Origin: Shigella phage ESh36
Sequence record: ON528746
DNA: 64,000 nt
Direction: 5' to 3' (one strand)
Each line of letters begins with the position of its first letter. Position 1 is the stretch's first letter. Shown here piece by piece: positions 20,970 through 27,877 of this stretch. A program made the position numbers and the translations under genes. The notes below the pieces were generated by a model. It was not told where the DNA came from. It was given only the letters and a program-made list of their open reading frames with translations, and ran no database searches.

Positions 20970-23021
20970 TTATCCTTGAACGAACTTGTAAGGCATGTTT
21001 GCAATATCTATGCAAGACGCAATAATTCCAAGAGATGATTCTACTTTCTGTTTAACATTTGATGAAACAAATGATGCAAAGTCAACTCTGTCTTCTATAT
21101 CACCTGTCATTGTAACCAATTCACCAGTTTCCATTAAATGGTCTCCGTCATAGATTACCGATTCGGTGAGTTCTTCTGTGGTCATAACTTCAGCTTGAAT
21201 AAGCTTGTTGTTAGTTCTAACTGTTCCATCGTTGTAAGATGCATCGGTTATTTTATTAACTTTGACCATTAATCCACGTGGCAAAATGACTTCCATTTCA
21301 TTTGAAGGCGCTAAACTTCCACCGGGTAAAACAACATTAACCTTATCAGCCCCAGTAATAACCCATCCAATTCCAACTAAATTATCGCTAGAATTTACTA
21401 GTCCTTCATCAGTTTTATCAATAGAAACACTTAGACGCTTTTCGTCTGGTAAAACACCCACAGATGAATCAGTCATCCAAGTACCAAAAATATTTGGATA
21501 TAATGATGTTGACACAAAGTTTCTAAAATAAAAAACTCGATTTTTTACCATTGCTTCGTATATTGAAGGTAACATTCGTTGTGAACGATACAAAGTAATA
21601 CCTTTTGGTAATCGTTCACCATTTTTAAAGGCTGAATCTAAATTATCAATGGCTTGTTCTATTTCAGGTGCTGTTAAAATACTTGTACGCTCATCTGGAT
21701 TATATAATCCCAAAAGAGCATTATTTATGTCTACATATCCTGAACCTACGTATTCACGAATTCCGCGTTTTTGTGCTGGTGTGTATTTAGATGAATCTTT
21801 ATTTTCGACTATAGGATGTAATGACCATCCAGCGGTAAGAGCATATCCACGTAATTCTCTTCGAATAATCTTTGTTTTTATTGCATTCCAAGAATTTTGT
21901 ACTAACTCATTTGCAGCATCTTGGTTTAAATGCGAATGTCTGTTAATATTTCTTTCAAACCAAGCACCTTTATATTTTTCTAAAGTATCATCGACGATAG
22001 AAGCAATAGTTTCTAAAGTTTTTATTGAAGTAATAGATTCTTTTCGTAATTTTTCTAAAGCTTTATTTTTTATTTCTGCATTAATAATGGATTCTTTATC
22101 TTCAGGAATTATAGAAGCTTCTCTGAATGCCATCCCAGCTGTAACACTGCTAAGAGCATTCTCTAGTGCAAATCCTGAAGTAGAAATTACCGTTAATTCA
22201 TTAGAATCAGAAATTAAAGGAGCGTCCGCTGGTTTATTTAATTCTGCCGCTGAAGCCTCAAATTTTTGAAACATCGGTGTTTCAAATCTAGAAGATTCCA
22301 ACGACTGACTTTGTGCAATTGCTCTACGGGAAATTTTAACTTTAACGATTACGGCTTGATCAGAACGTTTATCATTTTCTTGTGCAATAGATGCTGCAAT
22401 TGCCTCATTTTTAGTTACTTGGGCTCCAGTATCTTTATTGATATAAACATCACCGACCTTCGATTCAACTTTAGTAAAGAGCTCAGTACTAATTTCAGGA
22501 ACTCCTGGAATGTCTTCTAATGATACATTTTTGCGATGTATAAGAATATATGCATACTTTTTATCGTAATCCCAGAGTTCCTTAAGAAGGACGTATCTGC
22601 CACCTGAACGACTACGGATAAGTCTATCAGCAATAACTTGAATTTGTCGAGCTTGGCCAGCAGTTTTAGACTTAAGAATACGAAGCATACAAGCATCAAT
22701 TTTATACTGACGCATCGTTTGCATTGCAACAGTAAAAACCGAATTGATATAATTAATTGGGCTTGGACCAAGACCTTTTAATTTAGCAATTGAACCTTTA
22801 GCAGTTAATGTAAAAGGAACAATATGCATCATTTTATCGCCCATCTTTAAATCACGATTAGTATCACCTCCAGATGTATAAGTACATAAACGAAAGCCTG
22901 GTTGTTCAATTGCGTCATCAACATGAACTGAAAAAATTTGCGGTATTTTCTTCTTTGGATTTAAGTTTGTAATCGGAAGAGTAGTATCTTCGTCAAATAA
23001 TTCTGTAATGAGTTCCATCAT
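20970..23021 (-). CDS. alt: Alt ADP-ribosyltransferase (virion-packaged)
   Basis: 683 aa; T4 Alt length and position before gene 30; late promoter TATAAATA on minus strand at 23042-23049. Confidence 0.9.
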   Translation of the reverse strand: MMELITELFDEDTTLPITNLNPKKKIPQIFSVHVDDAIEQPGFRLCTYTSGGDTNRDLKMGDKMMHIVPFTLTAKGSIAKLKGLGPSPINYINSVFTVAMQTMRQYKIDACMLRILKSKTAGQARQIQVIADRLIRSRSGGRYVLLKELWDYDKKYAYILIHRKNVSLEDIPGVPEISTELFTKVESKVGDVYINKDTGAQVTKNEAIAASIAQENDKRSDQAVIVKVKISRRAIAQSQSLESSRFETPMFQKFEASAAELNKPADAPLISDSNELTVISTSGFALENALSSVTAGMAFREASIIPEDKESIINAEIKNKALEKLRKESITSIKTLETIASIVDDTLEKYKGAWFERNINRHSHLNQDAANELVQNSWNAIKTKIIRRELRGYALTAGWSLHPIVENKDSSKYTPAQKRGIREYVGSGYVDINNALLGLYNPDERTSILTAPEIEQAIDNLDSAFKNGERLPKGITLYRSQRMLPSIYEAMVKNRVFYFRNFVSTSLYPNIFGTWMTDSSVGVLPDEKRLSVSIDKTDEGLVNSSDNLVGIGWVITGADKVNVVLPGGSLAPSNEMEVILPRGLMVKVNKITDASYNDGTVRTNNKLIQAEVMTTEELTESVIYDGDHLMETGELVTMTGDIEDRVDFASFVSSNVKQKVESSLGIIASCIDIANMPYKFVQG

Positions 23022-23072: not shown

Positions 23073-23259
23073 AATAATCTATTGGTAAGAGAGTACGATA
23101 TATTTCAAACTTTGGACCTTTTTCATAGGCATCAAATGTTTCTGTGAATTTATTATAAGCATACGCATCTATAAATTCAATCATAATTTGTGATACAGAA
23201 GTAGAAACATCTCCACCTTCTTTTTGAGCCACGACAATTGTTTCTAAGTAAGCTTTCAT
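23071..23259 (-). CDS. hypothetical protein (T4 alt.1 position)
   Basis: 62 aa ORF between ligase and alt; start overlaps ligase stop. Confidence 0.45.
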   Translation of the reverse strand: MKAYLETIVVAQKEGGDVSTSVSQIMIEFIDAYAYNKFTETFDAYEKGPKFEIYRTLLPIDY

Positions 23260-24719
23260 AGACCAGTTACCTCATGAAAATCACCAAATACATCCTCAAA
23301 TGTATTAGCTTTAGTTTTATCTTCACGTAAACGAATCGCAATCGGAAGAAATAATTTAACGTAATCAGTGCGGCCGTCAGATTTTAACCAACCGTTGCAT
23401 TCGCACTCTAGAATTTTTCCAATATAATAATTTTGGTTTTCCATAATGCGAGTACGGTCAAGTTCATGTGATTTTACACCGGCTTTATCTTTTAAGCCTG
23501 AACCAGCATTTACCTTAATTTTTCCACACTCTGACTCAAGAATAAATCCACCCGCTTTAGTAGGGTCTTTACGGTGAGGATAAATTCCTACAATTTTTAA
23601 ATCAACATCAATTACTTCTTTAAATTTATAAAGATTTTTTGAACGAGCATTTTCCCATAATCCATCGATATTTTTGAGAATAATACCTTCAAGACCTTGG
23701 TCAATATACTTTTTATAAATTACCTTAGCTTCATCTAGGTTATTTACTACCTGGTTTTCAATTAAAATTACTTTATCATAGCCTGATGTCATTTGTTCTA
23801 GTTTAGAAAAACGTACATCATATTTCAAACGAAATGCAGGAAGACCGTATATTTCTACCAATGGAACATAATCCCAGACCTGAAACTTCATGCATTGAGC
23901 TTCTTTTTCAGAAATGGTTCCCTTTAAAGATTTATTAGCGATTCCATTAGAAGTAGTACGTGATTCAGCTACTTCGGCGAATTCTTTGGCTTTACTAATT
24001 TCAGGATAAGCATCAAAAAGAAAATCTAGGCCTTCTGGCTCCTTTTTAACTTGCTCATGGTATACCAATTCGCCATCAATTAACACGCCTTCTGGATGAA
24101 TCTGGCGGGCTTCAGCGGTCATTTTGATTAATTCTTCCTTAAGAAGATCTAATCCTAGATATTCATTACCGGCTCGTGATAAAAGACGAACATCATCTAA
24201 TTCATCACCTCTGACTTCAGCAAAGCACCGAGCTCCATCAGCTTTTAATTGGGCAAAGGCTGGAAATTTGATATTCTTATTAATGCCTTTTTCATCATAA
24301 GAACTTGCCAGCATTTGAGGTTGTTCAGGAATTAAACCTGGCCAAACTTTGTTTGCAATAGATACTGAAGCACCGCATTCAAGGTCTCGCATCATCACCC
24401 GACGCAAAACTTCAACATCATCTTTTTTACCGTCAGCAATATATCCAGTTAATTCCTCAATTGCCGCATTTCCAGTCAATTTCCGAGTAGCTAATGTGAA
24501 TTCAATGAAGTCAAGCATATCGGTAATAGTCAGCATTCCAAAACTCTGGGTAGCAATACCAGGCTTAGGCCATTTCTTGATATAATACTGTAACCCACGA
24601 GAATAAGTCAGACGATATACTCGTTTAAGCAATTCATTATCTTTATTCTTTTCAAGAATTGCTTGCTTCTGCTTAGTTGATCCAATAGATGCTATTTCAT
24701 TCAGAATTTTAAGAATCAT
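23256..24719 (-). CDS. 30: ATP-dependent DNA ligase gp30
   Basis: 487 aa; N-terminus MILKILNEIASIGSTKQKQAILEKNKDNELLKRVY as in T4 DNA ligase; adenylation lysine motif region present. Confidence 0.95.
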   Translation of the reverse strand: MILKILNEIASIGSTKQKQAILEKNKDNELLKRVYRLTYSRGLQYYIKKWPKPGIATQSFGMLTITDMLDFIEFTLATRKLTGNAAIEELTGYIADGKKDDVEVLRRVMMRDLECGASVSIANKVWPGLIPEQPQMLASSYDEKGINKNIKFPAFAQLKADGARCFAEVRGDELDDVRLLSRAGNEYLGLDLLKEELIKMTAEARQIHPEGVLIDGELVYHEQVKKEPEGLDFLFDAYPEISKAKEFAEVAESRTTSNGIANKSLKGTISEKEAQCMKFQVWDYVPLVEIYGLPAFRLKYDVRFSKLEQMTSGYDKVILIENQVVNNLDEAKVIYKKYIDQGLEGIILKNIDGLWENARSKNLYKFKEVIDVDLKIVGIYPHRKDPTKAGGFILESECGKIKVNAGSGLKDKAGVKSHELDRTRIMENQNYYIGKILECECNGWLKSDGRTDYVKLFLPIAIRLREDKTKANTFEDVFGDFHEVTGL

Positions 24720-24985
24720 TGTTCATCCTTCAGAGTTTGATTTACAGCTCTATTATAAATCAATTCATCATTAAGCTCAGTTAAAGACCTATGATATGTA
24801 GTTCTAACTTTATTTCCTTGCATCCAGTGCTTGATATAAATGAAACCTTGCTCGACACATTTTTTAAAAATTCGTTCGTCTTTTTGAGCTCGGAATTCTG
24901 GATTGCATCTAAAAAATTGATTTACGTGACCGTAATCACGTGTAGTATTACCTTCATTTTCATAAATAGTGTGAACAACAAACAT
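24716..24985 (-). CDS. hypothetical protein (30.x cluster, 1st ORF)
   Basis: 89 aa; overlapping start/stop with neighbours. Confidence 0.5.
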   Translation of the reverse strand: MFVVHTIYENEGNTTRDYGHVNQFFRCNPEFRAQKDERIFKKCVEQGFIYIKHWMQGNKVRTTYHRSLTELNDELIYNRAVNQTLKDEQ

Positions 24986-25824
24986 TAGAATGCTCCTTGG
25001 AAAATATTATCACCACAAGTAGGTCTATTATACAAATACTCTATACCGCCGGGTTTAATATAGTTCCATGTCTGAAACGGATGTGTCTGATATGGATGAT
25101 ATAGATGATTATAAGGATTAAATCCAGGAGTTCTCCAGGTAGTGTTCCAACGAAAAGAATCGTTTTTAATCATCTTTTCAATTACATCTTTTATAGCTTT
25201 TTCACTATCAAAACTTTCTTTATTTTCCTTCGATGGAAAAAGCTTATTCTCTACATCGTTCCATGTATAAACTCGCTGAGCAGTTTTTGGAATACTGTCA
25301 CGTTCCCCTCGAGCCATCCAATAAACAGGAACACTTAATATTTCACTCGCGTGATCGCAGTGGTGAGCGAGATCGTCAATATAACAAATTACGTTATATT
25401 TCTCTTTTGCCTTTTTGAACAACTCTTCTTTTGAGGAATCATGACCACACATCAATACTTCCGAGAAAGCACCAGGAAAAAGAGCATTCAAATTAAATTG
25501 ACGATTCAACAGAGCGTCAATAGAATCACCCAGCGCTGTAACAGCTACAAAATTATAATCTTCTTTTAATTTGTTAATTACACACAGAGCATCTTTATAT
25601 GGAGACAAGTAACGAATAAAATCTGAACGATTGTATTTTTCAATTAACTTGACACCAAGTTCTTCATCACAATTAAAAAGTTTACCAGGAGAAATAAATT
25701 TTTCATCTTGGATCATTTTTAAAATATGTTCCAACGGAAGATTATATTTCTGAGCAAAATAAGGAAGGCCTGATTGCCAGCTTAAACACACTCCATCAAT
25801 ATCAGTTAAAATAGTAGGCTTCAT
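24985..25824 (-). CDS. HAD-like hydrolase-family protein (30.x cluster, 2nd ORF)
   Basis: 279 aa; N-terminal ILTDIDGV motif typical of HAD phosphatases/nucleotidases. Confidence 0.55.
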   Translation of the reverse strand: MKPTILTDIDGVCLSWQSGLPYFAQKYNLPLEHILKMIQDEKFISPGKLFNCDEELGVKLIEKYNRSDFIRYLSPYKDALCVINKLKEDYNFVAVTALGDSIDALLNRQFNLNALFPGAFSEVLMCGHDSSKEELFKKAKEKYNVICYIDDLAHHCDHASEILSVPVYWMARGERDSIPKTAQRVYTWNDVENKLFPSKENKESFDSEKAIKDVIEKMIKNDSFRWNTTWRTPGFNPYNHLYHPYQTHPFQTWNYIKPGGIEYLYNRPTCGDNIFQGAF

Positions 25825-26285
25825 AGAGAGTCTCTTAATAGGTTTAACACATCAATAAATTCAGCTTCGGTTAGTATTGTATCATCTTTTGTTAGACCAC
25901 TAGCCATGCTGTGCTTCAAAACTTTTCCTTTCGAGGCTTGTAATGCATCACGAAAGCCCTTGTTTTGGATCGCTGCTTCAAAATATGCATTTGTGTATAA
26001 TTCTTTCCACGCCGGGGAGTATCTTGAAAATGGAACTCCAAGCCAGAAGAGGGTCCCACGGTCCTGAGCTCTAGCATAAGACCTTCCAGCTTGTTGAGCG
26101 GCAAGCCCGGATAACCCAAATATACGACGTTGTTGTTCAACGTTTTTCACCTTGCATCCTTGGAGGAATCCTTCAAGACCTCCAAATTGAATACCATCCA
26201 TAACGAAAGGCCATTGGGCGAAATTACTTAATGCGCATGATGGCCATCTAAAATTGCTTCTAATCTCTAACTCAGACATTTTCAA
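25821..26285 (-). CDS. NADAR (YbiA-like) domain protein (30.x cluster, 3rd ORF)
   Basis: 154 aa; LSNFAQWPFVMDGIQFGGLEGFLQGCK closely parallels the E. coli YbiA signature FSNFAAWPIKVDGKTWPTSEHYFQAQK. Confidence 0.7.
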   Translation of the reverse strand: MKMSELEIRSNFRWPSCALSNFAQWPFVMDGIQFGGLEGFLQGCKVKNVEQQRRIFGLSGLAAQQAGRSYARAQDRGTLFWLGVPFSRYSPAWKELYTNAYFEAAIQNKGFRDALQASKGKVLKHSMASGLTKDDTILTEAEFIDVLNLLRDSL

Positions 26286-26478
26286 TACTTATAATTTCAA
26301 CATCAGCCCAATGACCATAGCAAGGAAGACGAAATTCAACTGGCCAGTTAGGGTCCTTTTCTAATATAATAGACTGAACTTGTGGCTCTTCATATTCATC
26401 GGTATACGGACCTTTATACGTTACTTTATATGTGACCTTAATGTACTGAATTCCAAAAATCTTATTAATTATATTCAT
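26272..26478 (-). CDS. hypothetical protein (30.x cluster, 4th ORF)
   Basis: 68 aa ORF, codirectional, overlapping junctions. Confidence 0.4.
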   Translation of the reverse strand: MNIINKIFGIQYIKVTYKVTYKGPYTDEYEEPQVQSIILEKDPNWPVEFRLPCYGHWADVEIISIENV

Positions 26479-26672
26479 ACTAATTCCTTTAATCCGTAAA
26501 TAGGAGATAATTCATCGCCCATACGAAGGTCTTCATTTCCATCTACCCAAGAAACAATATAAGCCTCTTTTATTTGAACACCACTCCATTTAAATGGAGG
26601 TAAAACCTTAGAAATTAATCCAGGTATACCAACTCCCTTTAATTCAACAGTTTGACCTAAAAAGAATTTCAT
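26475..26672 (-). CDS. hypothetical protein (30.x cluster, 5th ORF)
   Basis: 65 aa ORF. Confidence 0.4.
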   Translation of the reverse strand: MKFFLGQTVELKGVGIPGLISKVLPPFKWSGVQIKEAYIVSWVDGNEDLRMGDELSPIYGLKELV

Positions 26673-27434: not shown

Positions 27435-27767
27435 TTATTTTACTACTTTCCAGTGCTGCATGTCAAGTTTACCAACTTTTTTCATCTTCTCAATTAAGCG
27501 TTCGGCGCGTTGGCGAGCTGTAACATAATACCATTCACCCAATTCATTTTGTTCAATTTTTCCAACGATTACTGTGTTCAATTCATAAATCCAACCAGTA
27601 AAGAAATTATGAACTTGAATTGTAAAGGTGAAATCTGTTCCCATACCTTCTGTTGTTTCTACTTCAATAATATCACCTTCAACTGCCATTAAGAACCACA
27701 TAGTTTCATCATATTTACCGTTGAAGCATTTAGTTTTAACTGCAGCGTTCAGATTAATCGTTTTCAT
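27435..27767 (-). CDS. hypothetical protein (30.x cluster, 8th ORF)
   Basis: 110 aa ORF preceded by terminator plus early promoter module. Confidence 0.5.
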   Translation of the reverse strand: MKTINLNAAVKTKCFNGKYDETMWFLMAVEGDIIEVETTEGMGTDFTFTIQVHNFFTGWIYELNTVIVGKIEQNELGEWYYVTARQRAERLIEKMKKVGKLDMQHWKVVK

Positions 27768-27844: not shown

Positions 27845-27872
27845 AAATAAAAAAGGACTCCCGAAGGAGTCC
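27845..27872 (-). terminator. rho-independent terminator after the 9th 30.x ORF
   Basis: GGACTCC-TTCG-GGAGTCC on minus strand followed by TTTTTTATTTT. Confidence 0.75.
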
Positions 27873-27877
27873 TCAAC

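Follow-up and report, generated by a model that had tools for sequence, protein, structure and literature searches.

Gene 30.3 and its surroundings

The window, i.e., the whole stretch of 64,000 nucleotides of Shigella phage ESh36 that we analysed (record ON528746), encodes on its minus strand the series alt, alt.1, ligase gene 30, 30.1, 30.2, 30.3, 30.4, 30.5, and 30.6 onwards. This order is identical, gene for gene, to that of the annotated T4 genome, and the DNA at positions 24700-26500 is 98-99% identical to that of many Tequatrovirus genomes. According to the list of open reading frames (ORFs), DNA ligase gene 30 lies at 23256-24719 and 30.1 at 24716-24985, both on the minus strand. The ORF list and the T4 annotation also place alt, the gene of the Alt ADP-ribosyltransferase, downstream on the same strand (20970-23021). 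It is about 3 kb from 30.3, as a preliminary description of the region, made from the sequence alone, had indicated when it mentioned such a gene nearby.

The ORF list contains a minus-strand frame of 154 aa at 25821-26285, with a TTG start at 26285, and we read the peptide LSNFAQWPFVMDGIQFGGLEGFLQGCK in the minus-strand ORF that ends at 25821. The most likely start codon is the ATG at 26279; it gives a gene at 25821-26279 and a product of 152 aa, whereas a start at the TTG at 26285 would add two codons. We prefer the ATG because the T4 annotation (459 nt, 152 aa) and the published numbering of the catalytic residues of T4 AdfN, E36 and K43 (PMC11825919), both agree with it. Hence, the ORF and the peptide singled out in the preliminary description are real, but the start given there is probably two codons too early. 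The ATG overlaps the stop codon of the upstream gene 30.4 (ATGTCTGA, 26272-26279). At the other end, the sequence and the ORF coordinates place the stop codon of 30.3 and the start codon of 30.2 in one ATGA overlap (25821-25824, minus strand), a signature of translational coupling.

The protein of the window matched the Pfam profile PF08010 (Phage_30_3, "Bacteriophage protein GP30.3") with E=2.3e-70 (the cutoff is 36 bits), and also PHROG 652, whereas NCBIfam and PADLOC searches with gp30.3 gave no match. It is as long as gp30.3 of T4 and identical to it at 151 of 152 positions (99.3%), the sole difference being I125M. Phages teqskov and PaulHMueller encode the protein of the window without any difference (100% identity), and a search of a phage database found homologues in 1,510 phage records. 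The ORF is gene 30.3 (adfN) of a T4-like phage (Tequatrovirus), with a phage-type NADAR DNA ADP-ribosylglycohydrolase as its predicted product. The function of adfN is already known from T4, and its occurrence in the window adds no new knowledge of it.

Early expression of 30.3 is plausible given a literature statement, by Iyer et al., on the early expression of T4-like NADARs alongside ADP-ribosyltransferases (ARTs), and given one good consensus match. The latter is the best sigma-70-like match between 23 and 29 kb (TTGACA-18-TAAAAT, 11/12; 27437-27466, minus strand). It lies upstream of 30.7, and it is only suggestive of a site from which 30.3, 30.2 and the ligase gene might be transcribed early. 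Promoter-like sites were not enriched relative to shuffled controls (22 seen, 20.3 expected). A strong terminator-like hairpin follows 30.9 at 27853-27874 on the minus strand, with a 9-bp stem (GAGGACTCC..GGAGTCCTT) and then a T run, and the sigma-70 match in front of 30.7 lies about 400 nt downstream of it. Together they suggest a putative boundary of a transcription unit upstream of the 30.7-30.3-30.2-ligase block. The main text of a time-resolved omics paper on T4 mentions neither 30.2 nor 30.3.

A phage-type NADAR protein with conserved catalytic residues

Searched alone, gp30.3 of the window had no match to the Pfam NADAR profile and retrieved no NADAR chain from the PDB, only an ATP pyrophosphatase at chance level (E=0.6). 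We collected 104 homologues and aligned 60 full-length ones. The profile of these 60 sequences had a single match in the PDB, E. coli YbiA (2b3w, E=0.005). The alignment covers the motif quoted in the preliminary description, pairing Glu with Glu and Lys with Lys, and a position-by-position count gave 11 identities to YbiA over the 27 positions of the motif. The YbiA signature given there is found verbatim in the alignment to 2b3w (FSNFAAWPIKVDGKTWPTSEHYFQAQKF). The Pfam NADAR profile (PF08719) was matched by 24 of the 60 relatives taken singly (best E=1.5e-7), i.e., gp30.3 of the window is related to this profile through its relatives and the family profile. The AlphaFold2 model of gp30.3, computed on the alignment (pLDDT 93.6, pTM 0.89), has the YbiA-type alpha+beta fold of the NADAR superfamily, a helical core flanked by small beta-hairpins. 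The resemblance to YbiA is beyond chance, but only at the level of profile or structure.

Among the 60 aligned relatives 20 positions are invariant, including P13, A16-F20, F25, E36-F38, Q40, H123, T134 and L136-T137, and K43 is conserved in at least 90% of the sequences. The catalytic Glu and Lys lie in the N-terminal SNF...E..FQ..K motif: the invariant Glu36 (GAA, 26172-26174, minus strand) aligns with the Glu of SEHYF in YbiA, and Lys43 (AAG, 26151-26153, minus strand) with the Lys of its AQK. The substitutions E36A and K43A impair T4 AdfN (PMC11825919). His123 (CAC, 25911-25913, minus strand) is the final residue of the last beta-strand, which spans residues 120-123 in the model. This position is occupied by Glu in YbiA-type, Asp in DarG1-type and His in phage NADARs, of which the His is a hallmark (PMC11543638, PMC11125620).

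We class gp30.3 of the window in the NADAR superfamily and, by its PF08010 match and its last-strand His, in the phage gp30.3 subfamily. Its fold is YbiA-like, but it lies outside the YbiA subfamily, which has Glu in the last beta-strand where gp30.3 has an invariant His. The label NADAR/YbiA-like of the preliminary description is therefore right for NADAR, by profile, relatives and fold, and wrong if taken to mean YbiA proper. E. coli YbiA (2b3w) and the NADAR of Phytophthora nicotianae (PDB 8bau), both with the last-strand Glu rather than His, are about 20% identical to gp30.3. YbiA has a role as N-glycosidase of riboflavin intermediates and does not protect cells against DarT1 (PMC11125620). 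In a published phylogeny, the phage (gp30.3) NADARs lie closer to the DarG1 type than to YbiA itself. Yet gp30.3 is not a DarG1 antitoxin. The DarG1 NADARs of Geobacter/Trichlorobacter lovleyi (PDB 8bat) and E. coli C7 are encoded next to DarT1 and have an N-terminal extension and a third catalytic Asp, whereas the protein of the window is a bare 152-aa core with His123, flanked by 30.4 and 30.2 and with no adjacent toxin. Moreover, the T4 protein was published as unable to replace DarG1 in uninfected cells.

The more distant homologues of gp30.3 (37-45% identity) come mostly from large uncultivated phage contigs of IMG/VR, of 100-424 kb (L017-L081). These loci showed neither a T4-like neighbourhood nor a recurrent neighbour, and would fit the repeated, stand-alone acquisition of "orphan" NADARs.

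The allele of the window resembles that of T4 in its locus (30.4-30.3-30.2-30.1-ligase-alt), in E36, K43 and H123, in length and in the C-terminal helix. It differs from it by the conservative change I125M and by the loss of the ATG of the internal frame 30.3'. Residue 125 is two residues after H123, and Met is common there in the family ("HSMG" or "HSIG"); judging from the family sequences, the I125M allele should behave like T4 AdfN, with no effect expected. The C-terminal helix (residues 138-151 of the model; 25827-25868, minus strand) is intact, and the protein has the full 152 aa. The naturally inactive allele of RB69 is orthologous and has the same synteny as the window, but it carries an extra T at nt 411 (ACTAACTTGAAG) that leads to a TGA stop and to a protein of 137 aa without the last helix. 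The extra T is absent from both the window and T4 in the DNA alignment. RB69 is sensitive to DarTG1 through this extra T and the resulting truncated protein, and C-terminal truncation lowers the activity of AdfN (PMC11825919).

Two further observations concern this gene. In RB69 (L082, 8226-8267 and 8268-8681), the frameshift leaves a 42-nt untranslated remnant of the former 30.3 frame in front of the start of an intact 30.2. The out-of-frame ORF 30.3', annotated in T4 inside 30.3, corresponds to 25916-26143 of the window (minus strand). Its ATG is ACG in the window, a synonymous change (AAT to AAC) in the frame of 30.3, and a TTG remains one codon later. Of 15 relatives, 13 keep the frame of 30.3' uninterrupted over 75 codons, even at 86% identity; it is broken in RB69 and in one other locus (L012).

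The HAD protein gp30.2 and its linkage to DNA ligase

Gene 30.2 (24985-25824, minus strand) encodes a HAD-superfamily phosphatase-like protein of 279 aa, 97% identical to gp30.2 of T4. It has a C1 cap, and its C-terminal tail is disordered and variable. The HAD motif DxDGV reported for this ORF in the preliminary description is present as DIDGV, and the other HAD motifs and the fold agree with it. Across 55 homologues D8, D10, K132, D150 and D151 are invariant and T96 nearly so, which corresponds to HAD motifs I (DxD), II (S/T), III (K) and IV (DD). The AlphaFold model shows the Rossmannoid core of the HAD superfamily with high confidence. A helical cap follows motif I as an insertion, and confidence is low in the tail, from about residue 200 onwards. 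In the searches, gp30.2 matched no Pfam or NCBIfam model at threshold (NCBIfam gave only a sub-threshold match to thiamine diphosphokinase), had no match in PADLOC, and matched a mouse deoxyribonucleotidase weakly (E=0.45). The name "gp30.2" was not found in a literature search.

A helical C1 cap is typical of small-molecule phosphatases among HAD enzymes, and the structural neighbours of gp30.2 are small-molecule HADs. These two features make it less likely that gp30.2 removes 3'-phosphates from DNA ends, as the HAD domain of T4 PNK does, an idea that stems from a weak PHROG match (E=0.004). Compared with C1-cap HAD phosphatases, including the 5'(3')-deoxyribonucleotidase family (3bwv, 6g2n, 2jao), gp30.2 has its C-terminal tail, of about 85 aa, as an extra element. 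In the window this tail covers residues ~196-279 (24985-25240, minus strand), is predicted to be disordered (pLDDT <60) and contains many W, Y, P and N residues. It varies greatly in length and is absent from many homologues. Near the C-terminus of many long forms we found the pattern G-(T)-G-I-E-Y-L-x-x-Q-P-T, which reads IEYLYNRPT in the window and looks like a short linear interaction motif.

To place gp30.2 relative to its two neighbours, we used 80 viral-contig loci seeded on gp30.3 and 78 viral loci seeded on gp30.2 (L083-L160). In the first sample, gp30.2 was encoded within 10 kb in only 19 of the 80 loci, which were close T4 relatives or ligase-linked loci. Clustering of the neighbours within 3 kb of gp30.3 revealed no family common beyond close T4 relatives, and in Klebsiella phage Roth68 the homologues of 30.2 and 30.3 are 58 kb apart. 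We therefore rejected gp30.2 as a conserved partner of gp30.3. In the second sample, a T4-type ligase was found within 10 kb in 74 of the 78 loci, and within 600 nt downstream in 67. The corresponding counts for gp30.3 were 35 (within 10 kb) and 27 (within 600 nt). By these counts, gp30.2 is syntenic with the ligase, far more consistently than with gp30.3: it travels with the ligase gene, and its adjacency to adfN is lineage-specific synteny. A common role of gp30.2 and the ligase in transactions of DNA or nucleotides may underlie the linkage, or no more than the conserved synteny of T4-like phages.

The product of NADAR hydrolysis is ADP-ribose, which contains a pyrophosphate diester and lacks a phosphomonoester. 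A HAD phosphatase would therefore act on it only after cleavage by another enzyme. The suggestion of the preliminary description that gp30.2 acts on the product released by its neighbour is not supported, given this chemistry, the activity of AdfN alone in vitro and in trans, and the synteny of gp30.2 with the ligase.

Function of AdfN and its significance

Most of what can be said on the function of the protein comes from experiments on T4. Schuller et al. (2023) reported that NADARs reverse the ADP-ribosylation of guanine by DarT1, and described the histidine variant in phage NADARs (PMC11543638). Purified gp30.3 of T4 hydrolyses guanosine-ADPr, not thymidine-ADPr, and does not rescue uninfected E. 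coli from DarT1 toxicity (Toxins 2024, PMC11125620). According to a 2026 study, the T4 enzyme takes off G-ADPr and leaves C-ADPr in place (PMC12945103). Johannesman et al. [quoted passage not shown] In their work the resistance of these phages to DarTG1 required AdfN, and AdfN sufficed for it: T4 and T2 lacking adfN formed no plaques on DarTG1 hosts, and adfN in trans rescued RB69. Purified AdfN stripped ADP-ribose from DarT1-modified DNA and did not bind DarT1, and rescue was only partially lost in the mutants E36A and K43A (PMC11825919). The assays that the preliminary description had proposed, i.e., ADPr-DNA hydrolysis in vitro and plaquing of a knockout on DarTG1 hosts, have thus essentially been published for T4, with positive results (PMC11825919).

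The ORF of the window is very probably an allele of adfN, a stand-alone ("orphan antitoxin") NADAR glycohydrolase that counters DarTG1. Its identity, fold, conserved catalytic residues and intact C-terminal helix were established here. We infer the enzymatic activity and the anti-DarTG1 phenotype from the T4 protein, which is 99.3% identical. Nothing in the sequence contradicts the anti-DarT1 reading. The expectation that the gene reverses the ADP-ribosylation of DNA and counters DarTG systems is thus upheld by the tests of homology and fold, together with the published work on T4. Under this model, when a cell carrying DarTG1 is infected, DarT1 would ADP-ribosylate guanine N2 in the phage DNA and block its replication. 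AdfN would then cut the N-glycosidic bond between guanine and ADP-ribose with Glu36, Lys43 and the phage-type His123. Free ADP-ribose would be released, the DNA would again be unmodified, and replication could proceed.

The statement that the enzyme alone suffices is incomplete in vivo, since it gives no rescue in uninfected cells and little help to non-T-even phages. T4 AdfN barely helps the latter and has its full effect only in T-even infection, and its authors suspect an additional T-even phage factor (PMC11825919). Could gp30.2 be this helper, perhaps by bringing AdfN into DNA transactions in which the ligase takes part? The ATGA overlap, the adjacency in 27 of the 78 loci and the intact 30.2 of RB69, a phage rescued by AdfN in trans, speak for it; the rarity of gp30.2 near most gp30.3 homologues and its association with the ligase speak against it. 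We regard such a role as improbable, and the synteny data do not single out gp30.2 among many possible candidates.

Could the phage NADAR mainly degrade soluble molecules derived from ADP-ribose, such as immune signals or by-products of RNA repair, instead of DNA adducts? Iyer et al. proposed this on contextual grounds, before the biochemistry was available. The genomic context is compatible with it: gp30.2 is not encoded within 10 kb in 61 of the 80 homologue loci, and only among close T4 relatives does any other family of neighbours recur. It is nevertheless very unlikely, because direct assays showed hydrolysis of G-ADPr on DNA (PMC11125620, PMC11825919) and because the phage phenotype is specific to DarTG1 and needs the catalytic residues (PMC11825919). 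A second, soluble substrate besides DNA is conceivable. With no recurrent neighbour outside T4 relatives, the context itself leaves the substrate unfixed.

Alt and Mod modify arginine in proteins. This weighs heavily against the idea that gp30.3 reverses or edits ADP-ribosylation by transferases of the phage itself (Alt encoded nearby, ModA and ModB elsewhere), because the linkages cleaved by the tested NADARs are N-glycosidic bonds of ADPr to bases: G-ADPr for all, C for some but not for the T4 enzyme, and T for none. The position of alt, which shares the strand of 30.3 and lies some 3 kb downstream of it, and the early co-expression of T4-like NADARs with ARTs (Iyer et al.) would agree with such editing, but most divergent homologue loci lie away from the T4 alt-ligase block, and we give it hardly any credence. 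Finally, an auxiliary metabolic role as a YbiA-type housekeeping N-glycosidase acting on intermediates of the riboflavin pathway can practically be dismissed, since the subfamily-defining last-strand Glu is replaced by an invariant His, the published phylogeny puts phage NADARs nearest the DarG1-type, and the demonstrated phenotype is anti-DarTG1.

The anti-DarTG1 reading of adfN would make ESh36 an example of a lytic phage with an orphan antitoxin-like enzyme, by which ADP-ribosylated DNA is repaired and a toxin-antitoxin defence defeated, as published in 2023-2025 for the gene of T4. Annotation is behind the functional papers of 2024-2025: among the matches listed from the 1,510 phage records, most still label 30.3 a "hypothetical protein". 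Odd labels also occur, e.g., "DprA-like DNA recombination-mediator protein" in one record and "homing endonuclease" in another. Records of 30.3 can now be named adfN, or NADAR DNA ADP-ribosylglycohydrolase. The distinction between intact alleles and truncated ones like that of RB69 could then serve as a predictor of DarTG1 sensitivity in therapeutic T4-like phages.
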